A DNA stretch of 64,000 bases, taken from contig MFTH01000008.1 in the NCBI GenBank assembly GCA_001786765.1, forward strand, positions 2,939 to 66,938, written 5' to 3'. The notes beneath the pieces are model-generated. The model was not told where the DNA came from, ran no database searches, and saw only the letters and a list, made by a program, of their open reading frames with translations. Every line of letters begins with the position of its first letter. The first letter of the stretch is position 1. Positions 4,459 to 58,616 of this stretch are shown piece after piece. Source of the stretch: Candidatus Nomurabacteria bacterium RIFCSPHIGHO2_01_FULL_37_25. GTDB lineage: Bacteria; Patescibacteriota; Minisyncoccia; Phycocordibacterales; UBA9973. The translations under genes were made by a program, and so were the position numbers.

Positions 4459-5028
4459 ATGTCATTTGCTAAGATTGGACACATGATTCCCGATGTGGAG
4501 GTGGAAGCATTTCACAACGAGGAAATAAAAAAGATTAAACTCTCTGATTATCGTGGCAAATGGCTCATACTTTTTTTCTATCCCGCAGATTTTACATTTG
4601 TTTGTCCAACAGAGCTCGAAGAAATGGCAGACAATTACGAAGTTATTCAAAAGCTCGGCGCGGAGGTCCTCTCTATTTCTACGGATACTGTATTCGTTCA
4701 CAAAGCGTGGCACGATACTTCGGAGGCTATCAAGAAGATTAAGTTTCCAATGCTCTCCGATTCGCGTCGAGAACTGTGTTCAATTTTTGGTACCCTTATT
4801 CAAGAAGAAGGGCTTTCTCTTCGCGGGACATTTGTAGTTGACCCAGATGGCGTCCTCCGTATCGTTGAAATAAATGATAACAGTGTGGGAAGAAACGCAA
4901 AAGAACTCATTCGCAAACTTCAAGCCGCTAAATTTGTTCGTGAACATGGTGATAAGGTTTGTCCCGCAGGCTGGGAGCCAGGCGATGATACGTTAACTCC
5001 CGGGCTAGACTTGGTGGGGAAGATATAG
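4459..5028 (+). CDS. 2-Cys peroxiredoxin (AhpC/TSA family)
   Basis: FYPADFTFVCPTE peroxidatic Cys motif; start taken at internal MSFAKIG (ORF opens at 4399). Confidence 0.8.
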   Translation: MSFAKIGHMIPDVEVEAFHNEEIKKIKLSDYRGKWLILFFYPADFTFVCPTELEEMADNYEVIQKLGAEVLSISTDTVFVHKAWHDTSEAIKKIKFPMLSDSRRELCSIFGTLIQEEGLSLRGTFVVDPDGVLRIVEINDNSVGRNAKELIRKLQAAKFVREHGDKVCPAGWEPGDDTLTPGLDLVGKI

Positions 5029-11045: not shown

Positions 11046-11119
11046 GGTGCCTATGGTGTAATAGTAGCACTAGAGCTTGTGGAGCTCTAAGATTCGGAGC
11101 ATAACCGAATAGGCACCCA
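11046..11119 (+). tRNA. tRNA-His(GTG) with genome-encoded G-1
   Basis: hand fold: G-1 plus acceptor GTGCCTA/TAGGCAC, discriminator C, anticodon stem AGAGC/GCTCT, loop TTGTGGA; T-loop AGCATAA atypical. Confidence 0.7.
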
Positions 11120-20354: not shown

Positions 20355-20379
20355 AATAAATTCAGAGTATAAAATAAAA

Positions 20380-20470
20380 AGAAAATTTTTGTCGGTACGG
20401 ATTTTTTGAAGCTTAAAAAATCCTGAAATTGGCTCGCCGTCGCTCGCCAAACCCCTTAAAAACTTTCTTT
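20380..20470. repeat. copy 1 of ~95-nt structured repeat (core GGTACGGATTTTTTGAAGCTTAAAAAATCCTGAA)
   Basis: near-identical to 55787-55886; contains palindrome GGATTTTTT...AAAAAATCC. Confidence 0.7.
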
Positions 20471-25439: not shown

Positions 25440-25667
25440 ATGAAACAGTCGCGAAAATTTACTGCGGTCTATAAAAAGTCTGGCAAGTGGTATTCTGGTT
25501 GGATTGAGGAAATTCCTGGCGTAAATACCCAAGGTAGGACATTGACTGAAACTAAAGCTAATTTAAAAGAAGCGCTTTTGCTTATTTTGGAAACTAATCG
25601 TATGCTATCTAAAAAATCCGAAGGCCAATCTATTATCACCCGTGAAAGTCTAGCTGTATTTGCTTAA
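25440..25667 (+). CDS. hicB: HicB-family antitoxin (short)
   Basis: 75 aa; SGWIEEIPGVNTQGRTLTETKANLKEAL pattern. Confidence 0.55.
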   Translation: MKQSRKFTAVYKKSGKWYSGWIEEIPGVNTQGRTLTETKANLKEALLLILETNRMLSKKSEGQSIITRESLAVFA

Positions 25668-25673
25668 TTTCTC

Positions 25674-25868
25674 ATGAAACAGGTTGACCTTATAAAACAT
25701 CTCAGAAAATGTGGATGTATTTTTGTAAGGGAAGGCAATTCGCATAGTGTTTGGTATAATCCACTTACAGGAAGAACCTCTACTGTGCCAAGACATCATG
25801 AGATTAATAATTTTACAGGAAGAAATATTTGTAAAGATTTGGGTGTATCTATAATCAAAAAAAGATAA
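25674..25868 (+). CDS. hicA: HicA-family toxin
   Basis: 64 aa; LIKHLRKCGCIFVREGNSHSVWYNP...VPRHHEINNFTGRNICKDLGV is a near-textbook HicA. Confidence 0.75.
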   Translation: MKQVDLIKHLRKCGCIFVREGNSHSVWYNPLTGRTSTVPRHHEINNFTGRNICKDLGVSIIKKR

Positions 25869-25878
25869 TATAATAAAT

Positions 25879-26523
25879 ATGTTTGAATCTAATCAGGAAG
25901 TTATTGATATATTGGAAAAAACAGGCGCAGTAGTTGGTGACAGTCATTTTGTCTATGTTTCTGGAAAACATGCGCCCGTTTATGTTAATAAAGATTATGT
26001 CTATCCTCACACTGCGTATGTTTCTCGAATTGCGGAAATAATTGCCCAAAAATATAAAGACAGCCCGGTTGATGTTGTGGTTGGACCATCTATCGGGGGT
26101 ATTATACTTTCTCAATGGACAGCTCATCATCTTTCTCGTCTAAAAAGTAAAGATATATTGAGCATTTATACGGAAAAACAAATAGATAAAGATCAAATTT
26201 TTACTAGAGGTTACGATACATATGTCAGAGGGAGGAATGTTTTGATCGTTGAAGATGTGGTTACGACCGGTGGTTCGATAAAAAAGGTTATAAATAGTGT
26301 CCAAAAAAATGCTGGAAGAGTTCTAGCCGCTTGCGCGATAGTCAACAAAGACCCGATAAATATAAATCCAAGTTTTATCGGCGTGCCTTTTGATTATCTA
26401 GCCATTATCGGCATGGATGTTTATGATGCAAAAGACTGTCCATTGTGTGAGCAAAATATTCCCATCAACATCCAAATGGGCCATGGGAAAAAATATTTAG
26501 AATCCAAAAAAATAGCGCAATAA
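25879..26523 (+). CDS. pyrE: orotate phosphoribosyltransferase
   Basis: PRTase motif VLIVEDVVTTGGSI. Confidence 0.75.
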   Translation: MFESNQEVIDILEKTGAVVGDSHFVYVSGKHAPVYVNKDYVYPHTAYVSRIAEIIAQKYKDSPVDVVVGPSIGGIILSQWTAHHLSRLKSKDILSIYTEKQIDKDQIFTRGYDTYVRGRNVLIVEDVVTTGGSIKKVINSVQKNAGRVLAACAIVNKDPININPSFIGVPFDYLAIIGMDVYDAKDCPLCEQNIPINIQMGHGKKYLESKKIAQ

Positions 26524-27354
26524 ATGATTGTTAATAAATACAACAAAAGAGCGAAGAAAATAAATTCATTGCTTTGCGTTGGTTTGGATTCAGACTTTAC
26601 TAAAATTCCAAAGCGTTTTTTGAAATTAAAATTTCCACAATTTGAATTTAATAAGTGGATTATAGATGAAACACACGAATACGCAGTTGCTTATAAAATG
26701 AATAGCGCTTTTTATGAAATGCGCGGAGACAAAGGAATAGCAGAACTTAAGATGACGATAGATTATTTAAATAAAAATTATCCAGATATTTTTACAATTT
26801 TTGATGCCAAGCGAGCGGACATTGGAAATACAAACAATGGATACGTCATTTCTATTTTTGATTGGTTCTGTTTTGACGCGGTAACCTTACATCCATATTT
26901 AGGACAAGAAGCTCTCCAGCCTTTTTTAGACAGAAAAGATAAATGCTCTATTATTTTATGTCGCACTTCGAATCCGGGCGCGGGGGAGTTTCAAGATTTG
27001 GTATTAAAGAAACCCGCCTCCGCCAAAGGCTCCAGCGAGGCAAAGCCACTTTGGCAAATCGTGGCTGAAAAAGTTTCAAAAGATTGGAATAAAAATAAAA
27101 ATTGCATGCTAGTTGTCGGGGCGACTTATCTAAAAGAGATGAAAAAAATCCGTAGTATTATAGGTGGTATGACTTTTCTTGCGCCGGGTATCGGCGCGCA
27201 GGGAGGGGATTTGAAATCAGTGCTTAAATCCGGATTAAATAGTAAAGGTCTCGGTCTCATCATCAATTCTTCCCGCGGTATAATTTTTGCTGAAAATCCA
27301 AAAGAAGAAGCAAAAAAACTTTGCCAAGAAATAAGAAAATACAAAGATAATTAA
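26524..27354 (+). CDS. pyrF: orotidine-5'-phosphate decarboxylase (type 2)
   Basis: LCVGLDSD and DAKRADIGNT motifs. Confidence 0.75.
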   Translation: MIVNKYNKRAKKINSLLCVGLDSDFTKIPKRFLKLKFPQFEFNKWIIDETHEYAVAYKMNSAFYEMRGDKGIAELKMTIDYLNKNYPDIFTIFDAKRADIGNTNNGYVISIFDWFCFDAVTLHPYLGQEALQPFLDRKDKCSIILCRTSNPGAGEFQDLVLKKPASAKGSSEAKPLWQIVAEKVSKDWNKNKNCMLVVGATYLKEMKKIRSIIGGMTFLAPGIGAQGGDLKSVLKSGLNSKGLGLIINSSRGIIFAENPKEEAKKLCQEIRKYKDN

Positions 27355-28748: not shown

Positions 28749-29213
28749 ATGGCAATAACAGAAAAAAAAGTTTCCGCCAAAGGCGGATCCGTCTCAGGCG
28801 GAAAAAATAAGAAAGAGCCTAAAGCAATTAAAGTTGCAAAAGCGCCTAAGGTTTCAAAAATTTCTCCGCAAAAGCAGAAATCTGTTCGCGCTGATACAAA
28901 AGATGCCAAAGTCATACTGCGTATTCGAGTCCGCGCTTACGAGAGTAAAATCTTGGATGCCTCAGTTAAACAAATCATAGATACGGCGGTTCGTTATGAT
29001 GCGGTGATAGTCGGACCTGTGCCTTTACCCACTGAAATAAAAAAATATACAGTCAATCGCTCTCCTTTTATTTATAAAAACACACGAGAGCAATTTGAAA
29101 TTCGTGTTCATAAAAGGTTGATTGATATCATAAACCCAAATACAAAGACTATTGAGGCTCTTACCAATTTGTCGCTTCCTTCCGGAGTAGATATTGACGT
29201 TAAAATGCTATGA
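28749..29213 (+). CDS. rpsJ: 30S ribosomal protein S10 with ~50-aa Lys/Ala-rich N-terminal extension
   Basis: C-terminal 100 aa match S10 (ILRIRVRAYESKILD...). Confidence 0.85.
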   Translation: MAITEKKVSAKGGSVSGGKNKKEPKAIKVAKAPKVSKISPQKQKSVRADTKDAKVILRIRVRAYESKILDASVKQIIDTAVRYDAVIVGPVPLPTEIKKYTVNRSPFIYKNTREQFEIRVHKRLIDIINPNTKTIEALTNLSLPSGVDIDVKML

Positions 29214-29333
29214 TCCCGTTAGAAGCCGCGATCGCAATTTAAAATATAAACAAAATATGAGATCAGATATTAGTAAAATTAATAACATAAAATGCGAGAT
29301 ATCCGAGTTGTTCGCGATCTGCTTCTAAACGGG
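29213..29333. mobile_element. palindromic MITE-like element E1 (type A), TIR TCCCGTTAGAAGC.../...GCTTCTAACGGGA, flanked by ATGA duplication
   Basis: ~22-bp terminal inverted repeat; ATGA at both flanks; downstream ATGA is the rplC start codon. Confidence 0.75.
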
Positions 29334-29942
29334 ATGAAATTCATTTTAGCAACAAAAGAAAATATGACGGAGTATTTTTCTGAAGAGGGTGTGGTTATCC
29401 CAGTAACGATACTTTCTGCCGGACCCGTGACGGTGACTAGAATTTTTGAAAAATCCAAAGATGGTTATAACTCTGTCCAAGTGGGTTTGGAAAAAAAGTC
29501 CCGACGCCCGAAGGGGTCGGGAGCCCGACCGCAAGCGTCGGGAAAAAATATCCTAAAAGAATTTAGATTAAAATCCGCCGACAAGATAGATGCAAAAAAG
29601 GGCGACAATATTGATGTTTCGGTTTTTGTTCCGGGTGATAAACTCCAAGTCTCCAGCGTATCTAAAGGCAAAGGCTTTCAGGGTGTCGTAAAGCGTCATG
29701 GTTTTAGTGGCGGTCCGCGCACTCATGGTCAAAAACATTCTGAAAGAGAGCCGGGAAGTATCGGAGGAGGACTCCGCACTCATGTTCCAAAGGGAATGAG
29801 AATGGCTGGCAGAATGGGCGGAGATCGCATTACCCAAAAGAATATCAAAGTTGTTTCTGTTGATAAAGAAAATAATATAATGCTGGTAAAAGGAGCAATC
29901 GCCGGCAAACGCGGGACTTTAGTTGAAATAATCAGCAGGTAA
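29333..29942 (+). CDS. rplC: 50S ribosomal protein L3
   Basis: L3 signature; the listed ORF start at 29292 lies inside element E1, so start set at MKFILATK. Confidence 0.9.
29503..29546. repeat. tandem GC-rich double hairpin (CCCGAC-N-GTCGGGA x2) inserted in frame in rplC
   Basis: gtcccgacgcccgaaggggtcgggagcccgaccgcaagcgtcggga; same element at 38072-38115. Confidence 0.7.
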
Positions 29943-29946
29943 TGAA

Positions 29947-30065
29947 CCCCGTTAGAAGTCGCGATCACGATTATGGCGATAATAAAGATATGAAAAAAGA
30001 TAACACAATACAAAAAAATAAAGAAAACTCTGAAAGTGTTGTATCGCGACCTACTTCTAACGGGG
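29947..30065. mobile_element. palindromic element E2 (diverged type A) between rplC and rplD
   Basis: ccccgttagaagtcgcgatcacg ... cgcgacctacttctaacgggg inverted repeat; 3' arm abuts a GTG start. Confidence 0.65.
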
Positions 30066-30727
30066 TGGAAGCAAAAATATACAATCAAAAAGGAGCTGAA
30101 ACCGGGACGATAAGTCTTCCAGAGAAAGTTTTTGCCGTCAAGTGGAAGAGTGACTTAGTGCATCAAGTTGTGCAAAGTATGAGAAGTAATAAAAGAGCAG
30201 GGACTGCCGACACCAAAGACCGTGGAGAAGTTCGTGGTGGAGGTAAAAAACCTTGGAAGCAAAAAGGTACAGGACGCGCAAGACATGGTTCAAGCCGAAG
30301 CCCTATCTGGGTTGGTGGAGGGGTAACGCACGGTCCGCTTGCTAAAAAAAATTATAAAAGAAAAATTTCAAAGAAAATGCGCGCGCAAGCTCTTTTCTCT
30401 GTTCTTTCAAAGAAGCTTAAGGATGAAGAAATTCTTTTTGTGGACACACTTTCTATGTCTTCTATCAAAACAAAAGATGCGGTAAAAGTAGTAGAGAATT
30501 TAGCGAAAGTTACTGATTGGAAAATGAAAGATTCTTCCCTGAAGCCTCGAGTGTTGACTGCGCTTTTTGGACGCAATGAAAAAACAGAAAAAAGTTTTAG
30601 AAATATTCCAGCATTAGAATTAGTATTTTTGAAGAATTTAAATCCATTTGATGTTTTAAATTATAAATATCTTTTAATAGAAAATCCGGTCGAAAGTATA
30701 AAATTTTTAGAATCTCGAGGTCAGTAA
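30065..30727 (+). CDS. rplD: 50S ribosomal protein L4 (GTG start)
   Basis: VEAKIYNQKG... matches L4 N-terminus; upstream part of the listed ORF is element E2. Confidence 0.8.
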   Translation: MEAKIYNQKGAETGTISLPEKVFAVKWKSDLVHQVVQSMRSNKRAGTADTKDRGEVRGGGKKPWKQKGTGRARHGSSRSPIWVGGGVTHGPLAKKNYKRKISKKMRAQALFSVLSKKLKDEEILFVDTLSMSSIKTKDAVKVVENLAKVTDWKMKDSSLKPRVLTALFGRNEKTEKSFRNIPALELVFLKNLNPFDVLNYKYLLIENPVESIKFLESRGQ

Positions 30728-31092: not shown

Positions 31093-31932
31093 ATGAAAAC
31101 ATATAAACCAACAAGTAAATCACGAAGACAAATGACCCATGTGCTTTACAGGGAACTTTTGACGAAGTCACAACCGACCAAGTCTCTCACTTATGGTTTT
31201 AGACGTTCTGTCGGGAGGAATAGCAGAGGACGCATCACTGTGCGACATAAAGGTGGAGGACACAAACGTCTTTATCGCGAGGTTGATTTTTTATATAATA
31301 AAAAAGAAATTCCGGCTATAATAAAATCTATCGAATATGACCCAAATCGTTCAGCTTTTATTGGGCTAGCTATTTATAAAGACGGAGAAAAGAGATATGT
31401 TATATTGCCTAAATCTATAAAGCCCGGAGACTCTTTTATTGTTTCGGAAAAGGCGCCTCTCTCAGTCGCTAATAGACTTCCTCTTAAAAATATCCCAGTC
31501 GGGACTTTTGTTTATAATATTGAAATACAACCAAATGGTGGAGCGAAGATAGGTCGTTCCGCAGGAATTTTTGCGCAAGTAGTTGCTAATGCTGATGGAT
31601 ATACAAACATTAAAATGCCTTCAACTGAAGTCCGTAAAATAAATGAAAACTGCTTCGCGTGTATCGGTACTGTTTCAAACGAAGAACATCATCTTGAAAA
31701 TTATGGTAAAGCTGGACGAAGTCGCTGGAAGGGAATACGACCGACAGTGCGTGGAACTGCGATGAACCCTGTTGACCATCCGTACGGAGGTGGAGAAGGC
31801 AGACAAGGACGCGGAACAAAACGTCCAAAGACTATGTGGGGCAAAGTAACCGGCGGAAGAAAAACCCGCAGTCCAAAGAGATACTCAAATGTCTTTATTG
31901 TTTCTCGTCGTAAGACTGGGAAGAATAAATAA
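31093..31932 (+). CDS. rplB: 50S ribosomal protein L2
   Basis: L2 signature (GRNSRGRITVRHKGGGHK...). Confidence 0.95.
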   Translation: MKTYKPTSKSRRQMTHVLYRELLTKSQPTKSLTYGFRRSVGRNSRGRITVRHKGGGHKRLYREVDFLYNKKEIPAIIKSIEYDPNRSAFIGLAIYKDGEKRYVILPKSIKPGDSFIVSEKAPLSVANRLPLKNIPVGTFVYNIEIQPNGGAKIGRSAGIFAQVVANADGYTNIKMPSTEVRKINENCFACIGTVSNEEHHLENYGKAGRSRWKGIRPTVRGTAMNPVDHPYGGGEGRQGRGTKRPKTMWGKVTGGRKTRSPKRYSNVFIVSRRKTGKNK

Positions 31933-31970
31933 ATTTAAAATTTGTATCCTTTTTTGCGCTGTGGTATAAT

Positions 31971-32270
31971 TTGAATCTTATGAAAAAATTAACACTCAAA
32001 GAAATAAATTTACCAGTTACAATATTTAAAGAAGGCAAGAGTTATGTGGCGTATAGCCCTGCTCTTGATCTTTCTACTTGCGCTTCCACTTACAAAAAAG
32101 CGCAAACTAATTTTTCCGAGATTGTTGGAATTTTTATTGAAGAACTTGTAGAAATGGGCACACTGGATGTAGTGCTCCGAGAATTAGGCTGGCAGAAAAT
32201 AAAATCTAACTGGCAACCGCCAGTTGTTGTTTCAAATTATTTTCAACCGATGAATCTTTCGTATGCCTAA
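31971..32270 (+). CDS. hicB: HicB-family antitoxin
   Basis: 99 aa; PVTIFKEGKSYVAYSPALDLSTCAST HicB N-domain pattern; overlaps next ORF. Confidence 0.5.
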   Translation: MNLMKKLTLKEINLPVTIFKEGKSYVAYSPALDLSTCASTYKKAQTNFSEIVGIFIEELVEMGTLDVVLRELGWQKIKSNWQPPVVVSNYFQPMNLSYA

Positions 32271-32493
32271 GAAGCAAAATGTAACGAATAGGCAGTTTCA
32301 ACAATTTTTAATATATGTCGGTTGTTCTTTTAAAAGATCTAAAGGAGATCATTTTGTATATGCGCGTTCCGATTTAATACGCCCTATTATAGTTCCTAAA
32401 GATAATCCTCTACCTCAATTTATTATAAGAAATAATCTTAAATTGCTTGGAATGTCTTGGGAAGAATTTTTCAATATAATTGATAGAATATAA
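32263..32493 (+). CDS. hicA: HicA-family toxin
   Basis: 76 aa; GDHFVY...IIVPKDNPLPQFIIRNNLKLLGMSWEEF matches the HicA/YcfA core. Confidence 0.55.
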   Translation: MPKKQNVTNRQFQQFLIYVGCSFKRSKGDHFVYARSDLIRPIIVPKDNPLPQFIIRNNLKLLGMSWEEFFNIIDRI

Positions 32494-32498
32494 ATTAA

Positions 32499-32568
32499 AC
32501 CCGCAGTCCAAAGAGATACTCAAATGTCTTTATTGTTTCTCGTCGTAAGACTGGGAAGAATAAATAAG
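32499..32568 (+). repeat. 70-bp direct duplicate of the rplB 3' end (identical to 31863-31932)
   Basis: aacccgcagtccaaagagatactcaaatgtctttattgtttctcgtcgtaagactgggaagaataaataa present twice, bracketing the hicBA pair. Confidence 0.85.
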
Positions 32569-32609
32569 ACCTCACCTAAACCAAAAATTGTTTTTCCACA
32601 TTTTGCTGT

Positions 32610-32890
32610 TGCATTATTTCAAATATAATGTTAAAAAAACAAGCAGAAAGGGGGTGATGGTGTGGCAGTGATGCAAGTAAAAAGAACTCTTGCTAGAGCA
32701 AGGAAGAAAAAGGACCGCTTCTACTGGCATAAGAAGCGGCAGGCAACACGCTTAAGGAAAAGGAGGGTGAAAAGATGATACTGTTGTGGGGCTCTCTATT
32801 AAGGGGCCCCACTGTTGTTTTTACTCAAATATTTGACATTTTACTCTTATTTGCTACTATAAAACCAAGCTCGATTCGAGCTTTTTGTTT
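32610..32890 (+). ncRNA. candidate structured GC-rich RNA ending in a terminator hairpin
   Basis: no ORF; local GC well above genome average; several perfect hairpins (CCGCTTCT/AGAAGCGG, GGGGCCCC); AAGCTCGATTCGAGCTTTTT terminator at about 32866-32890. Confidence 0.2.
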
Positions 32891-32903
32891 ATATAAATTA
32901 TGA

Positions 32904-33024
32904 TCCCGTTAGAGATTATTCGGTTAAAATTTAACGGTTTATATAATGTATATACTAAAGTGAAATTATTAGTTTTAATAAGAAGACACAACGGAAATCT
33001 AAAGATTTCCTATCTCTAACGGGA
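32904..33024. mobile_element. palindromic element E3 (type B) upstream of rpsS
   Basis: TCCCGTTAGAGAT ... ACGGAAATCTAAAGATTTCCTATCTCTAACGGGA; ATGA on both flanks. Confidence 0.75.
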
Positions 33025-33377
33025 TGACAAGATCAATCAAAAAAGGCGTATATGTGGATGAAAGGCTTTTAAAAAAGATTGCCGGCAAAAATCCTCTTAA
33101 TACAGGAACCATAAAAACATGGAAGAGAGCTTGTGTTATATCTCCCGATATGCTCGGTTTTACTTTTGGTGTTTATAATGGCAAGGTTCATGTGGATGTC
33201 TTTGTTACTGAAGACATGGTGGGGCACAGATTGGGAGAATTTTCTCCAACAAAGAAATTTACAAAACACGGCGGAAAGATGCAGAAAGAACTCGAACAAA
33301 AGAAAATGGAAGCTGAAATAAATGCCGCCAAAGGGGCGACTGCGGCCGCGGCTGACGCCAAGGGCAGTAAAAAGTAG
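33024..33377 (+). CDS. rpsS: 30S ribosomal protein S19 (Lys/Ala-rich C-terminal extension)
   Basis: S19 core motif. Confidence 0.9.
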
Positions 33378-33383
33378 GAATGA

Positions 33384-33504
33384 ATCCCGTTAGAAGCCAC
33401 GATCGCAATTTGAAAAGAAACAAAAATATGAAATCAAGCATTATAAAAATTAATAATATAAAATATCAGACATGCGAGTTGATCGCGATCTGCTTCTAAC
33501 GGGA
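33384..33504. mobile_element. palindromic element E4 (type A) between rpsS and rplV
   Basis: ~85% identical to E1; flanked by ATGAA/ATGAA. Confidence 0.75.
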
Positions 33505-33896
33505 TGAAAGCATTTTTAAAAAATTACAGACAGGCTCCGAGGAAAGTTCGCTTGGTTGCGAGTCTCTTAAAGGGCAAGAGTGTTGTGGAAGCCCTAGCCG
33601 AGCTTGATTTTTTAGCCAAACGCGCAGGACTGCCTATAAAAAAGCTTTTAATTTCCGCAGTTTCCAATGCAAAATCTATGGGAATTCAAACAGATAATTT
33701 ATTTATAAAAGAATTGCGAGTAGATAAAGGCATAACAATGAAAAGAATGATGCCGGCGGCTATGGGCACAGGACACAGGATAAATAAACGCACGAGCCAT
33801 TTGAATTTGTTGCTCGCAGAAAAAGTTTTAGCAGTTAAAAATTCTCCAAAAAGGACAGTCCTTAAGAGAGTTTCCCCAAGGACCGTCCTTAAGTAA
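33504..33896 (+). CDS. rplV: 50S ribosomal protein L22
   Basis: L22 signature. Confidence 0.9.
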   Translation: MKAFLKNYRQAPRKVRLVASLLKGKSVVEALAELDFLAKRAGLPIKKLLISAVSNAKSMGIQTDNLFIKELRVDKGITMKRMMPAAMGTGHRINKRTSHLNLLLAEKVLAVKNSPKRTVLKRVSPRTVLK

Positions 33897-36469: not shown

Positions 36470-36490
36470 ATAGAGTAAGAAGGGATGAAA

Positions 36491-36611
36491 TCCCGTTAGA
36501 GATCCTTCAGTTAAAATAATCAATAGAGTAAAAATATTATGATAAGTTTAAATAAATTATTAATAGTTATAAAAAGAACGGAAATCTAAAGATTTCCTAT
36601 CTCTAACGGGA
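36491..36611. mobile_element. palindromic element E7 (type B) between rplX and rplE
   Basis: same TIRs as E3/E8; flanked by ATGAAA/ATGAAA. Confidence 0.75.
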
Positions 36612-37186
36612 TGAAACATTTAATTATAAAAGAAAAAGAGAAAGAAGTGTTTGAAAAAATGAAAGAAATTTTTCGTTTCAAAAATACTTTTGCCTCTCCA
36701 AAAATGCAAAAGATTGTGTTAAATGTCGGCACGGGGACAGCTATAAAAAAAGATAAGAATAAAAATGACGAAATATCTCTTCGTCTAGCGAAAATTACTG
36801 GGCAAAAGCCGGTTACTAGGGGTGCTAAGCATTCAATCGCATCTTTCAAAACCAGAGCGGGTGACCCAATAGGAATTGTTGTAACACTGCGAGGAAAAAG
36901 GATGTATGCTTTTTTAGAAAAACTTATCAATGTCGCTTTGCCTCGCACGAAAGACTTTCGCGGTATCGCTCGTACGGGAGTAGATAATATAGGCAATCTC
37001 ACTATCGGTATAAAGGAGCACACTATTTTCCCAGAAACAGCTGATGAGGACATTCGGGATATCTTTGGTATGTCTATTACTTTGGTTTCTTCCGCAAAAA
37101 ATAAAAAAGAAGGCACAGCTTTCTTTGAGCTTTTAGGCGTGCCTTTGAAGAAAGAAGAGTCTGTTCGCAAGATTAAGCAAGGATAA
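36611..37186 (+). CDS. rplE: 50S ribosomal protein L5
   Basis: L5 signature. Confidence 0.9.
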   Translation: MKHLIIKEKEKEVFEKMKEIFRFKNTFASPKMQKIVLNVGTGTAIKKDKNKNDEISLRLAKITGQKPVTRGAKHSIASFKTRAGDPIGIVVTLRGKRMYAFLEKLINVALPRTKDFRGIARTGVDNIGNLTIGIKEHTIFPETADEDIRDIFGMSITLVSSAKNKKEGTAFFELLGVPLKKEESVRKIKQG

Positions 37187-48819: not shown

Positions 48820-49251
48820 TTGTTTCTGCTTCTCTCTTATTGCTATAATACTGGAATGGACAGAAGAAAGCTCATAAAAACTTTAATATACCTTATTTTT
48901 TTAATTTTTTTAGTAAATTTTTTCGCAAATAAATTCTACTGGTATTCTTCTATTTGGTATTTTGATATGATTATGCATTTTTTGGGCGGATTTTGGGTTG
49001 GGCTTGCCTATTTCTATATTTTTCTACTCCAAAATATGTCTAGTAGATTAATTTTCAAAATATTATTTTCAGTATTAATTATTGGTGTCGGCTGGGAAGT
49101 ATATGAAATCTTAGTGAACGATATTCTTGCGCAAAATCCTTTTAATTATATAGACACTGTGTCTGATTTATTTTTTGACTTATTCGGCGGTTTATGTGCT
49201 ATTCTTTATTTATGGATCCCGTTAGAGATTAAAAAGTTTAATATAAAATAA
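48820..49251 (+). CDS. hypothetical membrane protein
   Basis: 143 aa, 4 TM; its last codons overlap the 5' arm of element E8. Confidence 0.3.
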   Translation: MFLLLSYCYNTGMDRRKLIKTLIYLIFLIFLVNFFANKFYWYSSIWYFDMIMHFLGGFWVGLAYFYIFLLQNMSSRLIFKILFSVLIIGVGWEVYEILVNDILAQNPFNYIDTVSDLFFDLFGGLCAILYLWIPLEIKKFNIK

Positions 49252-49335
49252 AAAATATATTTATGATCAAATTGATTAAAATATTAATAGTAATTAAGGG
49301 TACGGAAATCTAAAGATTTCCTATCTCTAACGGGA
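49216..49335. mobile_element. palindromic element E8 (type B) upstream of the beta-CASP gene
   Basis: TIRs identical to E3/E7; ATGGA/ATGGA flanks. Confidence 0.75.
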
Positions 49336-50699
49336 TGGAAAAAATTGCCAAAATAACATTTTGTGGAGGAACTGGCTCTGTGACTGGAGCTAATTTTCTT
49401 TTGGAGGTAGATGGAAAGAAAATTTTGGTTGATTGCGGACTTATTCAGGGAACAAAATTAGCGGACGATATAAATTGGGATCCTTTTCCTTATGATTCAA
49501 GGGAAATAGATATTCTTTTTGTTACTCATGCGCATGTTGACCATTTGGGCCGTATTCCGAAACTTATTAATGAAGGATTTCATGGGAAAATATATTCCAC
49601 AGAACCTACTCGCGCATTGGCTTTTCCAATGCTTGAGGATACTGCAGGTATTTTATCTAAAAATGCAGAACTTCATTTGGATAAAATTTATACACCAGAA
49701 AGTATAAAATTAGCGCTCTCATTTTGGCAAGGATTTAAATATCACGATACAATAAAAATTACTCCAAATTTAGAAGTATCTTTTTTAGATGCTGGGCATA
49801 TATTAGGTTCAGCCATGATTAGATTCGTGTTCAATGGCAAGGTCATTCTTTTCACTGGAGACTTAGGCAATTCACCTTCACCGCTTCTTCCTGATACTGA
49901 AAGAGTTATTGATGCTGATTATTTAATTATGGAGTCCGTCTATGGTGATAGAAATCATGAGTCCAGAGATGATCGCAGGAAATTTCTGGAAGAAACAATA
50001 GAGGATAATTATAAAAGAAAAGGAACACTTATCATACCGACTTTTTCGCTAGAACGTTCCCAAGAGCTCCTCTTTGAGCTCAATGCTTTAGTAGAAAACA
50101 ATCGTATTCCCGTAATGCCTATTTTCCTCGACTCTCCTTTGGCTATTCGTTTAACTGAAGTTTTCAAACAATTTAGAAATTATTTTAATGAAACAGCTCA
50201 AAAAGCGATGTCGCATGATAAATATTTGTTTGATTTTCCTGGATTGCATAATACTTTAAAGTCTGAAGAGTCCCGAATGATAGGTAATGTGCCAAATCCT
50301 AAAATAGTTATCGCTGGAAGCGGAATGTCTACGGGCGGGCGTGTAGTGCACCATGAAAGGCATTATTTGCCAGACCCAAACAACACTCTACTTCTTACTG
50401 GATATCAAACTGCAGGCAGTCTCGGGCGCTTGATTCAAGAAGGAGTTAAGACAGTGCGTATAACGAATGAAGACGTGGTAGTTCGAGCGCATATTGTTAC
50501 AATTACAGGATACTCAGGGCATAAAGATTGTTACGGGCTGCTCGCTTTTGTGGAAGATATGAGAGATACAATTAAAAAAGTTTTTGTAGTTATGGGTGAA
50601 CCAAAGTCAGCAATGTTTCTAACACAGAAACTTAGGGATAATTTAGGCATTGACGCATCGGCTCCGGAGCGGGGGGATAGTGTAACACTAGTTTGCTAA
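49335..50699 (+). CDS. MBL-fold beta-CASP ribonuclease (RNase J/CPSF-like)
   Basis: HAHVDHLG motif, beta-CASP region. Confidence 0.65.
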   Translation: MEKIAKITFCGGTGSVTGANFLLEVDGKKILVDCGLIQGTKLADDINWDPFPYDSREIDILFVTHAHVDHLGRIPKLINEGFHGKIYSTEPTRALAFPMLEDTAGILSKNAELHLDKIYTPESIKLALSFWQGFKYHDTIKITPNLEVSFLDAGHILGSAMIRFVFNGKVILFTGDLGNSPSPLLPDTERVIDADYLIMESVYGDRNHESRDDRRKFLEETIEDNYKRKGTLIIPTFSLERSQELLFELNALVENNRIPVMPIFLDSPLAIRLTEVFKQFRNYFNETAQKAMSHDKYLFDFPGLHNTLKSEESRMIGNVPNPKIVIAGSGMSTGGRVVHHERHYLPDPNNTLLLTGYQTAGSLGRLIQEGVKTVRITNEDVVVRAHIVTITGYSGHKDCYGLLAFVEDMRDTIKKVFVVMGEPKSAMFLTQKLRDNLGIDASAPERGDSVTLVC

Positions 50700-55342: not shown

Positions 55343-55377
55343 TCTTGTGCTAGCACTGCGAAGCTTTAGCGAAGCAG

Positions 55378-55771
55378 TGGAGATGGGGGGAAATGAGCCC
55401 CCGTGCAGAAGGTTTTTGTCAAGAAGTCTACATACATAGCGCGTTTTTTGTTTTAAATTAAAAAATTCAGAAACGCGCGAAATATTTTTTAATCGAGCTT
55501 CTGTGTTTCGCCCCGACGGCGAAGCTGTGTCGGGACTATCCCGATAATATTATGCCTCTACTCATATATCGGAAGTCTATGAGAGAGACACGAGTTACGC
55601 GTAAGCGGAAACTCGAGCGAAAGCGAAGTCATTCATACTGAAGTATGGAGAGACTGCTTTCACCTTAGAAGCTAATTTTGCAATTAACATTTGAACGAAG
55701 TTTTACGAGATTACGTTCATGCTCGGTATGCGTCAATAACAAATGGCCTACTGTCTATGCCTTGCATCCCC
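55378..55771 (-). ncRNA. ssrA: tmRNA (ssrA), CCA not encoded
   Basis: minus strand: 5' GGGGATGCAAGGCATAGACAG pairs with 3' ...GGGGG-CTCATTT-CCCCCC-ATCTCCA, same acceptor pattern as B. subtilis tmRNA (GGGGACG/CGTCTCC); ~394 nt; next to smpB. Confidence 0.6.
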
Positions 55772-55786
55772 ATTTTATAAAAAATG

Positions 55787-55886
55787 TTGGAACATAACTT
55801 TTTCCGGTACGGATTTTTTGAAGCTTAAAAAATCCTGAAGTTCTCGGCTCGTCAGCCTCGAAACCCCTGCAAAAGTTATGTTCCAA
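55787..55886. repeat. copy 2 of ~95-nt structured repeat, closed by 16-bp inverted repeat TTGGAACATAACTTTT/AAAAGTTATGTTCCAA
   Basis: core identical to 20394-20430; lies between the smpB 3' end and the ssrA 5' end. Confidence 0.7.
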
Positions 55887-56344: not shown

Positions 56345-56418
56345 AATTTAATCTTAGCATAAATTTCCTCAGTTTTTTCTTGTTGTTTTGTGTTTTTTAT
56401 GGTACTCTCTAAAGATGG

Positions 56419-56697
56419 ATCCCGTTAGAGATTACTTATGTTTTATTACACATACATATTAAAAAGCAAGAAGGACGGTAAAATTTACACGGGACATACG
56501 CAAGATCTACGGAAGCGCCTAAATCAACACAATAAGGGTTTATCGACATATACGAAAGGCAGAGGCCCATTTGTTTTGATATATTACGAAGCGTGTTTAT
56601 TAGAAAGTAAAGCGAGGTCGAGGGAATTATACTTAAAATCGGGAATGGGTAAGCGTTATCTTAAAAGTAGATTGGGCGCTTCCTATCTCTAACGGGA
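56419..56697 (+). mobile_element. full-length palindromic element E9 carrying a GIY-YIG gene (putative autonomous parent of the type B MITEs)
   Basis: 5' arm ATCCCGTTAGAGAT and 3' arm CCTATCTCTAACGGGATG identical to E3/E7/E8; the loop is filled exactly by an 84-aa ORF. Confidence 0.75.
56438..56692 (+). CDS. GIY-YIG nuclease family protein (COG2827-like)
   Basis: YTYILKSKKDGKIYTGHTQDLRKRLNQHN GIY-YIG core; stop codon TAA lies inside the 3' TIR. Confidence 0.7.
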   Translation: MFYYTYILKSKKDGKIYTGHTQDLRKRLNQHNKGLSTYTKGRGPFVLIYYEACLLESKARSRELYLKSGMGKRYLKSRLGASYL

Positions 56698-58616
56698 TGA
56701 ATTTTAATTTTTTGAAGAAAAACAGCTTGCAAAATAAAGACAAAAAGCCAAAAGTGGAAAATACTTTTGGAAGTAGTGTTGCTGGAGCAATATTTATTTT
56801 TATGCTTATCACGGCAGTGTATTTAGTAGTGTCTGACAATGCAGAAATTATCCCAGAGATTCCGATTTCTGATTTAGCAAAAAGTGTTTCCGCTGGAGAA
56901 ATAAAAAAGATTCTTGTTGAAGGTGACAAACTCACTATCACTTTTCAAAATGATAAAATTAAAATTTCTAAAAAAGAAGTTGACGCGTCTTTATCACAGA
57001 CACTTTTTAATTATGGTGTAAGTAGCGAAGCATTAACAAAAACCGAGATAGAAATAAAAAAAGAAAGTGGTTTTGTATTTTTACTTTTAAACATTCTTCC
57101 GTTTTTATTGCCGATAATTTTTATTTTAATTTTCTTTTGGTATCTATCAAGGCAAGTTAAAGGAGCGGGTATGCAAGCGCTTTCTTTTGGTCAGTCCAAA
57201 GCGCGCATCACTGATCCAAATGACAAGAACAATAAAGTCACTTTTAAAGATGTGGCTGGATGTCGCGAGGCAAAAGAAGAATTAAAAGAAATTGTAGATT
57301 TTTTAAAAAGCCCCAAGAAATTTTTAGATATTGGCGCGCGGATTCCCAAAGGCGTTATTTTAACTGGCGCGCCGGGCACAGGAAAAACTTTACTTGCTAG
57401 AGCTGTGGCGGGGGAAGCCAGTGTGCCGTTTTTTCATTTATCTGGAAGTGAGTTTGTGGAGATGTTTGTGGGTGTAGGAGCTTCGCGCGTGCGGGACCTT
57501 TTTAAAATGGCGAAAAAAGCCGCTCCAGCGATAATATTTGTGGATGAAATAGATGCCATCGGGCGGACTCGTGGGGGTGGTTTTGGCGGAGGCAATGATG
57601 AGCGTGAACAAACATTAAATCAAATATTGGTGGAAATGGACGGTTTTGAACCGAATGATAAAGTAATAGTGATGGCGGCGACCAATAGACCGGACGTGCT
57701 TGACCCAGCTCTTATTCGCCCCGGCCGTTTTGATAGAAAAGTATTGCTTGATTTGCCTGATCGCGCTGACCGTGAAGAAATATTAAAAATTCATGCGGTC
57801 AAAAAACCATTAGCGGAAGATATTAATTTGAAGTTAATTGCCGAACGCACTCCCGGATTTTCTGGAGCTGATCTGCATTCCTTAATGAACGAAGGCGCGA
57901 TACTGGCCGCTCGCGAAAATCGCAAGAAAGTTTTCCAATTTGATTTGATTCGCTCTATTGAGAAAGTTATGTTAGGGCCAGAAAGAAAAAGCCATTTGCT
58001 TTCCAAAAAAGAAAAAGAAATTACAGCGTATCATGAAGCAGGGCACGCTTTAGTAGCTTCAGTTTTACCACACGCTGACCCAGTTCATAAAGTTTCTATT
58101 ATCTCTAGAGGAAATGCCGGAGGGTACACTTTGAAATTGCCCCTAGAAGAGAGGCGACTTCAATCTAAAAAAGAATTCATAGATGACATTGCCATGTCTC
58201 TCGGCGGTTATGTGGCAGAACAGATGATATTTGGAGATATCACCACCGGTCCTTCGAGCGACCTTTCAGCAGCGACTAATTTAGCCCGGGCAATGGTTAC
58301 ACGTTTCGGGATGTCAGACATTATTGGGCCTATTGCTTTAGTTGGAGGTGGGGGAAGACCTCAATATGGCGAGCTGATTGAAAAAGAATATTCTGAAGCG
58401 GTCTCTACAAAGGTGGATGCGGAAGTCTCAAGAATGATAGCTGATGGGTTAAAGTCCGCTAGAGATGTTCTGACTGAACATAAAAAAGCGTTCACTGCTA
58501 TTGCCAATAAACTTATTGAAGTGGAAACATTAGAGCAAGAAGAATATGAAAAAATATTAACTGCGCATGGGATAACGCTCAAGAAGAAGGAGATAATAGT
58601 ATCAACCGTTGCTTAA
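56697..58616 (+). CDS. ftsH: ATP-dependent zinc metalloprotease FtsH
   Basis: AAA Walker A/B, SRH, HEAGH zinc motif. Confidence 0.95.

Follow-up and report, generated by a model that had tools for sequence, protein, structure and literature searches.

A hicBA toxin–antitoxin cassette bracketed by copies of the rplB 3′ end in Nomurabacteria: a candidate for spread by host homologous recombination

In the 64,000-nt stretch of Nomurabacteria DNA analyzed here (the window), a small hicBA cassette of about 564 bp, comprising its own predicted promoter, a hicB antitoxin gene and a hicA toxin gene, lies downstream of the rplB stop codon and upstream of the paired terminator and promoter that divide rplB from rpsS (Table 1). 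The cassette is enclosed by two directly repeated copies of the end of rplB, which a window-wide repeat search found to be 100% identical over 71 nt, with a start-to-start spacing of 635 nt; the chance expectation for such a repeat pair in 64 kb is about 4e-31. The perfect duplication around hicBA reported in a preliminary description of this DNA is thereby confirmed, with small corrections to its coordinates: copy 1 had been given as 1 nt too short (70 instead of 71 nt) and copy 2 (32499–32568) had been placed 1–2 nt off. Copy 2 was also said to follow directly on hicA, and it does, beginning 3 nt past the hicA stop codon (32491–32493). The other hicBA pair in the window, which adjoins fusA, has no flanking repeat.

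Table 1. Features between the start of rplB and the end of rpsS, in window coordinates
Feature	Position	Strand	Evidence or remark
rplB (ribosomal protein L2), 279 aa, target gene	31093–31932	+	Pfam Ribosomal_L2_N, E 2e-32; Ribosomal_L2_C, E 8e-51
Direct repeat copy 1, final 71 nt of rplB including the TAA stop	31862–31932	+	100% identical to 32497–32567
Cassette left end with its own predicted promoter	31933–31979	+	Read from the sequence
Extended −10 element, TGTGGTATAAT	31960–31970	+	9 nt upstream of the hicB ATG
hicB-like antitoxin gene, 96 aa	31980–32270	+	Fold match to HicB-like proteins
hicA toxin gene, 76 aa	32263–32493	+	Pfam HicA_toxin, E 3e-5
Direct repeat copy 2, non-functional copy of the rplB tail	32497–32567	+	Identity to copy 1; same junction in L094 and L113
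Species-specific segment from copy 2 to the rpsS promoter	32568–32812	+	No nucleotide similarity in 80 relatives; RNA fold z-score −3.0
38-codon basic (Arg/Lys-rich) ORF	32662–32778	+	Shine-Dalgarno GGGGGTGA upstream
Intrinsic terminator	32786–32812 plus T run	+	Within the species-specific segment
Conserved rpsS promoter (TTGACA-16/17-TAnTATAAA) and leader hairpin (32867–32883)	32833–32883	+	Promoter scan 10/12
Element E3, inverted-repeat element of ~124 nt, exactly at the rpsS start codon	32900–33023	+	Repeat searches; outside the cassette
rpsS (ribosomal protein S19)	33024–33377	+	Pfam Ribosomal_S19, E 2e-30

The two cassette genes are small, adjacent and co-oriented, overlap by 8 nt (a geometry retained in all homologous loci) and form one operon, as is characteristic of HicAB modules. 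The Pfam HicA_toxin match of the downstream protein, at 24.5 bits, falls below the gathering score of 27. We nevertheless place it in the HicA family: PF07927 is precomputed on most of its 34 homologues and G28-D29-H30 is invariant in an alignment of 15 sequences. A PDB sequence search with HicA returned no match. For the upstream protein the assignment as HicB is based on the fold, because the sequence families are silent, neither Pfam nor NCBIfam giving a match to the window protein. Its AF2 model (pLDDT 90.4) has a beta-beta-beta-alpha core that is consistent with the N-terminal fold of HicB (partial RNase H-like, UPF0150), and the best Foldseek matches in the PDB are the HicB-like structures 2yzt and 3k6q (probability 0.98, E 0.1–0.35), the former also being found by profile search at E 0.025. 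Among the homologues, Pfam HicB_lk_antitox appears weakly in 2 of 27, and one (P0050) is named a HicB family antitoxin by NCBI. At the C-terminus, Pfam gave no RHH or HTH match that would indicate a DNA-binding domain, and the model shows two short strands followed by coil. Taken together, the family profiles and the structure model show the pair to be a HicA-family toxin with a HicB-fold antitoxin, for which toxicity and its neutralization are predicted. A TGTGRTAYAAT-like motif resembling the proposed extended −10 element recurs ~6–10 nt upstream of hicB in homologous cassettes from eight other contexts; a consensus promoter scan did not list the cassette promoter owing to its weak −35 element.

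Downstream of copy 2, the 332 nt before element E3 (32568–32899) had been described as about 330 nt of GC-rich non-coding DNA. The stretch is present, but its GC content only slightly exceeds that of the window (0.38 vs 0.36), and it is not featureless, containing an ORF, a terminator and the rpsS promoter. This promoter sits directly upstream of rpsS in most relatives; its −35 and −10 elements and the leader hairpin are invariant or nearly so in a 14-sequence alignment, the hairpin with compensatory changes. Across 80 related species the gap between rplB and rpsS ranges from 87–111 nt up to ~3 kb, and the spacer content is species-specific, with essentially no family in common among 268 spacer ORFs compared all-against-all by BLASTP. 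The gap is both a transcription-unit boundary, with its terminator and promoter, and a general insertion hotspot in Nomurabacteria, which bears on annotation, synteny-based binning and assembly breaks in a region that is widely used for phylogeny.

The reality of the repeat was examined in a comparison set of 12–13 loci from independent assemblies (JGI 3300025317 and 3300025311, NCBI GCA_001785715.1, and several ENA MEGAHIT and scaffolded assemblies). With the rplB start as anchor, 11 of the 13 could be aligned to the window, each with 0 mismatches over 1331–2300 nt, and 10 of these 11 contain both repeat copies; a single copy is present in only two of the 13, both cut inside the cassette region. 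A collapsed or mis-joined repeat, or a strain chimera, could be suspected from the way in which contigs break within the cassette region (L012 begins 16 nt into copy 1, L006 stops within hicA and L020 stops in the cassette promoter), but breaks at repeats are the expected product of a real repeat. Moreover, the identical structure recurs across different samples and different assemblers, and a k-mer artefact could not account for the homologous repeat that another species has at 90% identity. Because independent assemblies reproduce the repeat exactly, we consider an assembly artefact to be excluded for all practical purposes. An apparent third copy at one locus (L095) is not biological but stems from overlapping ends at a scaffolding gap filled with N. 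Every contig that has the exact RplB also has the cassette. The pattern expected of an empty site (unique rplB sequence, repeat and right flank) gave 0 matches in metagenome contigs, as did a control 30-mer from the window, the collection being without this organism.

The preliminary description regarded the repeat as the mark of an arriving cassette, and comparison with other genomes strengthens this view, since the same cassette occupies the same site in two further species. In the second species (L094, the same species as L020) the flanking repeat is 92 nt long at 90% identity; it begins in the rplB tail, continues past the stop codon and reaches into the −35 region of the rpsS promoter, leaving the promoter intact downstream of the cassette. 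The junction there (hicA stop, ATT(A), then the rplB residues K-T-R) is that of the window, and copy 2, which is not clearly closer to any identified donor, still translates as a plausible L2 tail (KTRKLKRYSNVFIVSRRKTGKNK, followed by a stop codon). The third species (L113, from the Hainich aquifer) has the same junction between hicA and the rplB tail, with copy 2 reduced to a 16-nt remnant that matches the window rplB at 15 of 16 positions and the rplB of its own host at 13 of 16. Third-codon identity among the three species is 78–79% for hicBA, compared with 52–60% for rplB and 60% for rpsS (Fisher p 2e-5 to 5e-8). As the identity of the cassette exceeds that of its neighbors, it is younger than the host species, which indicates horizontal transfer between them. 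With a junction common to three species whose cassettes are far more alike than their rplB and rpsS genes, the suggestion that the mobile unit includes the second rplB tail is likewise upheld.

Shared position and junctions in three species, along with the divergence of the two copies in L094, could also result from vertical inheritance, in which the duplication and hicBA were ancestral to these Nomurabacteria and were lost in most lineages, the copies being homogenized in the window by gene conversion. This history is disfavored, and we judge it very unlikely, because the third-codon identity of hicBA stands so far above that of both flanking genes and because the window's other close relatives (L014, L016 and L025, about as distant as L020) have no cassette. 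An ancestral duplication without hicBA, which the preliminary description had named as evidence against its proposal, was not encountered either: a long duplicate of the species' own rplB tail is present in none of the 80 related species. Short, diverged second rplB tails without hicBA do occur at three loci (L024, L037 and L064), where a foreign-type rplB tail is in place and the old tail has been displaced ~60 nt downstream, and they represent an event distinct from the duplication in the window. At L024, an unrelated cassette, which encodes an RHH protein and another small protein without a Pfam match and adjoins a second hicBA, is flanked by a perfect 28-nt repeat of the rplB tail.

Members of the same cassette family are present at other loci, some of them also between duplications. 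L102 has an 85-nt flanking duplication (96.5% identity) of an intergenic, terminator-containing target, and L110 has a 47-nt duplication of the pheT tail (79% identity, a score equaled in 0 of 1000 shuffles), the second copy of which translates as a PheT tail (DKITDKIRENSAWQVR vs IKITNKIKENKDWQVR, each followed by a stop codon). Four of the nine genomic contexts (L100/L116, L104, L107 and L114) have no flanking repeat. The boundaries of the repeats vary, with left ends at −71, −29 and −24 and right ends at 0, +4 and +34. The cassette starts at the right end of copy 1, and in each case examined (the window; L094, +34 nt; L110; L102) this point lies at the stop codon or beyond it, so that the gene was never interrupted and had no need of being restored. 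Furthermore, the duplicated sequences at the other loci (pheT tail and intergenic terminator) are local and unrelated, so there is no conserved att core.

No integrase-like ORF is listed between the repeats, just as the preliminary description had stated, and ORF listings with selected Pfam scans found no integrase in the rplB–rpsS spacers of 80 related species. The same was true of four loci, each in a different species, at which the operon is broken after rplB. In IMG/VR, relatives of HicA were found at only 28–31% identity and the rplB-tail motif was absent; neither INPHARED nor PLSDB gave a match to the cassette or to this motif. Two other classes of element were considered and rejected. 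An integron cassette does not fit, as the repeat duplicates coding sequence in direct orientation, no inverted repeat (attC) brackets the cassette, which has its own promoter, and the flanking ribosomal genes contain no integrase-like ORF. Measured against the terminal inverted repeats and short (2–14 bp) target-site duplications of an IS, transposon or MITE, the cassette lacks inverted-repeat arms at its ends (31933 and 32496), the duplicated length is 71 nt in the window and 47–92 nt elsewhere, and there is no transposase gene.

How the duplication arose, and how the cassette moves, can be considered in light of three further explanations. The likeness to integrase-type elements that restore the end of their target gene, noted in the preliminary description, corresponds to a decayed integrase-dependent (CIME-like) element: an integrase element whose attP contained a copy of the gene end would have entered the rplB 3′ end and then lost its integrase, leaving attL and attR as the two tails and a TA module mobilizable in trans. 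Such elements are classically recognized by direct repeats of which one includes a housekeeping-gene 3′ end, and the perfect 71-nt repeat with the rplB stop codon has this form. IMEs target the 3′ ends of the ribosomal-protein genes rplL, rpmE, rpmG and rpsI (IMESag-rpsI and IME_SagNEM316_rplL are named examples), often have TA modules as cargo and, on decay, give rise to CIMEs in which attL and attR are retained, although rplB was not found among the target genes in the review's listing (Guedon et al. 2017, PMC5704250). In the window and L024, no more than 4 nt separate the repeat end from the stop codon, and the different cassette in the L024 repeat, beside a second hicBA, looks like accretion at one att site. 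Against this stand the searches above, which revealed neither a cognate integrase (in the interval, the 80 spacers or the four broken loci) nor a phage or plasmid copy, the shifting repeat boundaries, the unrelated repeats of L102 and L110, which share no att core with the window, and the start of the cassette past the stop codon, which leaves no gene end to replace. The likeness is thus not sustained, and we regard descent from such an element as unlikely.

The explanation that we prefer, with a probability of roughly 0.5, is that the cassette is recombinase-free, carries a piece of its target, and integrates and excises by host homologous (Campbell-type) recombination. RecA-type recombination between the tail copies would release a circle containing one tail copy and hicBA, and restore an intact rplB–rpsS junction. 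On reaching a cassette-free genome, the circle, or equivalent DNA taken up from a relative, would integrate by one crossover in the conserved rplB tail and regenerate the tail–cassette–tail arrangement. The empty site would then read as unique rplB sequence, one tail and GACCTCACC, and the circle (or tandem) junction as the hicA end, ATT, the tail and ATTTAAAATTTG. The conserved end of an essential gene would thus serve as a portable homology arm, allowing the cassette to land at the same site in different species, and TA addiction, which would select against cells that lose the cassette, may account for the persistence of the repeat. Perfect identity of the copies in the window would reflect either recent integration from a same-species donor or gene conversion between copies 564 bp apart. 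If one copy came from the functional gene of another host, a divergence of copy 2 that preserves coding, as in L094 and L110, would be expected; this coding-like divergence is read from few sites in the sequences. We infer the circular intermediate, the RecA dependence, the addiction and the origin of the first duplication at each new locus.

Against this model, neither an excised circle nor an empty site was seen, and four of the nine contexts have no flanking repeat. Homologous recombination through only 71 nt, at 82–90% identity between species, would be inefficient, and the Campbell-type model, which covers spread at a locus already colonized, does not explain the first duplication at new loci, of which three independent ones have one. 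These three may indicate that the insertion step itself duplicates 50–110 nt of the target. In such a duplicative insertion, widely staggered breaks or a replication or repair intermediate would be filled in to give a true long target-site duplication, and the shared junctions would stem from later transfer of the whole locus by homologous recombination. One cassette family has indeed entered three unrelated targets (the rplB tail with the rpsS promoter, the pheT tail and the L102 intergenic terminator), each with a long local duplication, and the preservation of the rpsS promoter 3′ of the cassette in L094 agrees with this scheme. As a single step it is also more parsimonious than insertion, imprecise circle formation and re-integration. 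However, the cassettes have no terminal inverted repeats, no conserved ends beyond the promoter and no enzyme gene; the repeat lengths are inconstant, and the contexts without repeats number four of nine. Furthermore, we know of no prokaryotic transposase or integrase that produces duplications of 50–110 bp. Duplicative insertion is therefore a doubtful alternative to Campbell-type recombination, and one whose insertion step, if it does make the duplication, would be a new DNA-insertion mechanism. More speculatively, the minimal TA cassettes of CPR bacteria might constitute a new class of recombinase-free mobile element that inserts with, or by, a long (~50–110 bp) target duplication, uses the conserved 3′ end of an essential gene as a homing arm and is stabilized by TA addiction.

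Chromosomal TA modules move horizontally, by a route that is largely unknown for those outside plasmids, phages and transposons. The rplB locus, with the same site and shared junctions in three species, offers a concrete, testable case of such movement. Should host homologous recombination acting on a carried target fragment suffice, any small selfish cassette could spread among related genomes. CPR bacteria would be a natural setting for such spread, because they are thought to depend on DNA uptake.

We found no earlier description of such an arrangement in the literature. The locus resembles CIMEs and IMEs in the direct repeats that flank the element, one of them holding a ribosomal-protein gene end while the gene remains intact, and in its TA cargo, which is common in these elements; CIMEs likewise have no integrase of their own. 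It differs from them in that the cassette is only ~0.6 kb, has no integrase-bearing relative at the site, is inserted past the stop codon and belongs to a family flanked elsewhere by unrelated duplications with no common att core. HicAB type II modules were reportedly described by Makarova and colleagues in 2009 as horizontally mobile two-gene cassettes. The pair is like these modules in its two small, overlapping and co-transcribed genes, encoding a HicA-family toxin with the G-D-H motif and a HicB-fold partner, and in its patchy distribution among close relatives and varied genomic contexts, and unlike them in that the antitoxin gene comes first and its product has no recognizable C-terminal DNA-binding domain. 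To our knowledge, neither long duplications of the local target nor a cross-species junction between cassette and rplB tail has previously been described for HicAB modules. Integron cassettes, such as the TA cassettes of chromosomal superintegrons, are also small units, often TA, that pile up at one hotspot, and in L024 two TA cassettes follow one another at the same site, much like an array; here there is no IntI or attC-type imperfect palindrome, the cassette comes with a promoter of its own, and the repeats at its boundaries duplicate the target gene end. Compared with Campbell-type integration of circular DNA, as of suicide plasmids or in the lambda style, and with RecA-mediated excision between direct repeats, the homology is very short here (47–107 nt) and only 80–90% identical between species, and neither a replicon nor a circle has been seen. 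The locus nonetheless has the same homology–insert–homology topology, would be reversible in the same way, and has a repeat whose length equals the shared homology and varies with each event.

The end of rplB is present twice in the window, as a direct repeat of 71 nt whose two copies are 100% identical (by chance, ~4e-31 pairs of this kind are expected). The gene's own 3' end, with the TAA stop, forms copy 1, and copy 2 starts 3 nt past the stop codon of the downstream hicBA gene pair. The preliminary description had reported a perfect 70-bp duplication here; a repeat search of the window confirmed it as real and identical, correcting its length by 1 nt and its coordinates by 1-2 nt. Independent contigs from JGI, NCBI (GCA_001785715.1) and several ENA assemblies, gathered by exact-protein lookup and representing different samples and assemblers, match the window without a single mismatch, over as much as 2300 nt, wherever rplB allowed an alignment, and each of the 11 loci spanning the entire cassette region has both repeat copies. 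The identical structure across samples and assemblers rules out an assembly artefact.

Features of the rplB-rpsS region and copies of the inverted-repeat family (window positions)
Feature	Position	Details
rplB	31093-31932	Pfam L2 domains
Direct repeat, copy 1	31862-31932	
Cassette leader		47 nt; extended -10 box TGTGGTATAAT at 31960-31970
hicB-like antitoxin gene (predicted)	31980-32270	96 codons
hicA toxin gene (predicted)	32263-32493	76 codons; 8-nt overlap with hicB
Direct repeat, copy 2	32497-32567	
Putative terminator	32786-32812	
rpsS promoter and leader hairpin	32833-32883	
Inverted-repeat family copies	29212-29328, 29942-30067, 32900-33026 (E3), 33383-33506, 36489-36613, 49215-49337, 56418-56699	

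The 564 bp between the repeats comprise the leader, the two genes and a 3-nt spacer. The Pfam match of the window HicA (E 3e-5, 24.5 bits) lies slightly under the cutoff; PF07927 is present on most of its homologues, a G-D-H motif is invariant in their alignment, and homology identifies the second cassette gene as encoding a HicA toxin. Family searches with the HicB-like protein gave no match. AlphaFold models it with confidence (pLDDT 90.4), the best PDB fold matches being the HicB-like proteins 2yzt and 3k6q (probability 0.98, at weak E-values), and a profile search also matches 2yzt (E 0.025). Unlike many HicB proteins, it carries no C-terminal DNA-binding domain. We regard the two genes as a module of the hicBA type with the antitoxin first, as judged from sequence and model, and with a predicted toxin activity.

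Among Nomurabacteria/Paceibacterota, homologues of the two proteins are common, at 52-95% identity, and a second species (loci L094-L099; its GTDB representative is L020) holds the cassette at the same rplB site. In L094, it is flanked by a 92-nt repeat of 90% identity (~107 nt if a more diverged stretch at the left end is counted), which begins in the rplB tail, takes in the stop codon and continues for another 34 nt into the -35 region of the rpsS promoter; its junction between the hicA stop and rplB K-T-R equals that of the window, save for a 2-nt indel. A third species, from a German aquifer (L113), has the same junction of hicA and rplB tail, with copy 2 shortened to 16 nt; this remnant shares 15/16 positions with the window rplB and 13/16 with the rplB of its own host, a comparison with few informative sites. 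L094 and L113 also agree at the left junction, and both retain a hairpin 5' of the cassette promoter, lost from the window. Across the three species, third-codon identity is 78-79% for hicBA, whereas it is 52-60% for rplB and 60% for rpsS (Fisher p 2e-5 to 5e-8); the cassette is therefore of more recent origin than these species and has moved between them. Alignment places the cassette at the same site, with the same junctions, in different species, and the second rplB tail evidently travels with a mobile cassette. The earlier proposal that the cassette arrived carrying, or generated, a second rplB end is borne out by the shared junctions and by the cassette being younger than its hosts.

Further members of the family (HicA 74-86% identical) lie in unrelated contexts. 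A DUF2283 gene accompanies the cassette in L102, and an 85-nt stretch of local intergenic/terminator sequence is repeated on the two sides of this cassette (96.5% identity); in L110, where the cassette lies between pheT and gyrB, a 47-nt copy of the pheT tail (79% identical; 0/1000 shuffles score equally high) follows hicA and still reads DKITDKIRENSAWQVR*, against IKITNKIKENKDWQVR* for the real tail. No flanking repeat was found in four other contexts examined (L100/L116, L104, L107 and L114). At the rplB site of L024 (3930-5540), an unrelated two-gene cassette, its first gene matching Pfam RHH_1 and its second without a Pfam match and RelE-like only by eye, lies between two identical 28-nt copies of an rplB-tail relic; a terminator hairpin, itself duplicated, and another hicBA come after it, making this locus an array-like pile-up of cassettes. 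L024, L037 (3143-3215) and L064 (4840-4900) have in common a foreign-type ('type 2') functional rplB tail, with a relic of the old, common tail ~60 nt downstream and a conserved GC hairpin before the relic.

By its RplB relatives, the organism is a Candidatus Nomurabacteria (Patescibacteria/CPR). Among the rplB-rpsS loci of 80 related species (L014-L093), the distance from the rplB stop to the rpsS start ranges from ~90-110 nt to ~3 kb, with nearly all of the content species-specific. The cluster is broken after rplB in four species (L036, L041, L069 and L093), where unrelated genes come next and no rpsS occurs within 4 kb; downstream of position 4840, these loci hold proline-biosynthesis-like, or RodA- and FolD-like, genes. 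Most of the 80 keep, directly upstream of rpsS, a promoter of strongly conserved sequence (TTGACA-17-TAnTATAAA) and a leader hairpin (GCTCGnnnnGAGC) that shows compensatory substitutions, and several aligned sequences have, just 5' of the promoter, a GC-rich hairpin and T run that read as a terminator. The separate rpsS promoter and the putative terminator mark the gap as a transcription-unit boundary, splitting the S10 cluster into two units in this clade, which explains why insertions are tolerated there. The window gap holds two further species-specific insertions, a 245-nt segment after copy 2 and the inverted-repeat element E3 at the rpsS start codon. The former contains a 38-codon, extremely Arg/Lys-rich ORF (32662-32778) with a strong Shine-Dalgarno sequence (GGGGGTGA) 5' and the terminator 3'; the 263 nt at 32568-32830 fold better than their own shuffles (z = -3.0), and the rplB-rpsS spacers of other species contain small basic ORFs of unrelated sequence (e.g. 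L027, L053, L037, L055 and L086). The segment could encode a fast-evolving small protein or an RNA. In the same spacer of L033 (4972-6422), an IS200-like Y1 transposase gene (Pfam Y1_Tnp) lies between two hairpin copies, TGTACTAGGC...GCCTAGTACA, and looks like a REP/RAYT-type unit.

E3 belongs to a family of ~115-125-nt elements (one ~280 nt) whose terminal inverted repeats are ATCCCGTTAGA...TCTAACGGGAT; 13 matches to these were found against 0.22 expected. The copies read, at rplD, rpsS and rplV, end precisely on an ATG or GTG start codon; the rplD copy is in frame and open, so that the longest ORF starts within it (MNPVRSRD...). Another copy lies upstream of rpsB in a different species (L100, ~2545-2575). 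Elsewhere in the window, a second, unrelated hicBA pair (UPF0150-like, 75 aa, and HicA, 64 aa; ~25440-25868) lies between fusA and pyrE, with no flanking direct repeat found. The pyrE-like phosphoribosyltransferase and pyrF-like OMP decarboxylase genes inserted between fusA and tuf (~25879-27354) interrupt the usual str-operon order. An 87-nt direct repeat (77% identity; 20379-20465 and 55791-55877) contains the hairpin GGATTTTTTGAAGCTTAAAAAATCC, its second copy adjoining the tmRNA gene (55375-55771, minus strand), and a tRNA-His (GTG) at 11047-11118 was called by ARAGORN, with no Rfam tRNA model match at the gathering threshold.

The simplest model that fits all observations, to which we assign a probability of about 0.5, is homology-driven mobility without a recombinase. 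A circular copy of the cassette would carry a stretch of the adjacent target, and a single crossover with the homologous stretch in a cassette-free genome would yield target-cassette-target, reversible by recombination between the two repeats. An essential gene would then lend its conserved end as a portable homing arm, and toxin-antitoxin (TA) addiction would counter-select cassette loss. The model predicts one illegitimate junction, between the hicA end and the target, common to all descendants, as seen in three species, as well as variable repeat lengths without a conserved core, both of which are seen. It also predicts that one repeat copy derives from a different functional gene. The L094 and L110 copies, whose divergence looks coding-like (few informative sites), and the L113 remnant, which resembles the window, are consistent with this. 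That the window copies are 100% identical would then reflect a recent event from a same-species donor, or gene conversion. What the model accounts for least well is how the first duplication arose at a new locus, and three independent loci carry such a duplication. The long target duplications at these loci may instead point to an insertion process that makes the 50-110-nt duplication of its target, an unlikely explanation that, if true, would be mechanistically new.

As the preliminary description had stated, no integrase lies between the repeats, nor does a transposase or other enzyme gene, and no integrase-bearing element occupies the rplB site in the 80 relatives (species representatives); an integrase-dependent element was rejected on these grounds. 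The suggested likeness to integrative elements that restore the 3' end of their target did not hold: the cassette starts at or after the upstream gene's stop codon in every case, so no gene end needed restoring, and flanking repeats from different loci have unrelated sequences, which leaves no conserved att core. The decayed remnant of an element once dependent on an integrase (a CIME; PMC5704250) is possible but quite improbable, and is entertained because the material examined comprised 64 kb of genome and species representatives only. No inverted repeats bracket the cassette, which excludes a transposon or MITE, and phage or plasmid cargo was rejected since neither a close cassette copy nor the rplB-tail motif was found in 2.9 million viral contigs, INPHARED phages or PLSDB plasmids.

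Homology-driven mobility would make this locus a testable route for TA movement in CPR bacteria. Mobile TA cassettes and repeat-bounded elements without an integrase are both known kinds, and the window cassette is a variant of these.
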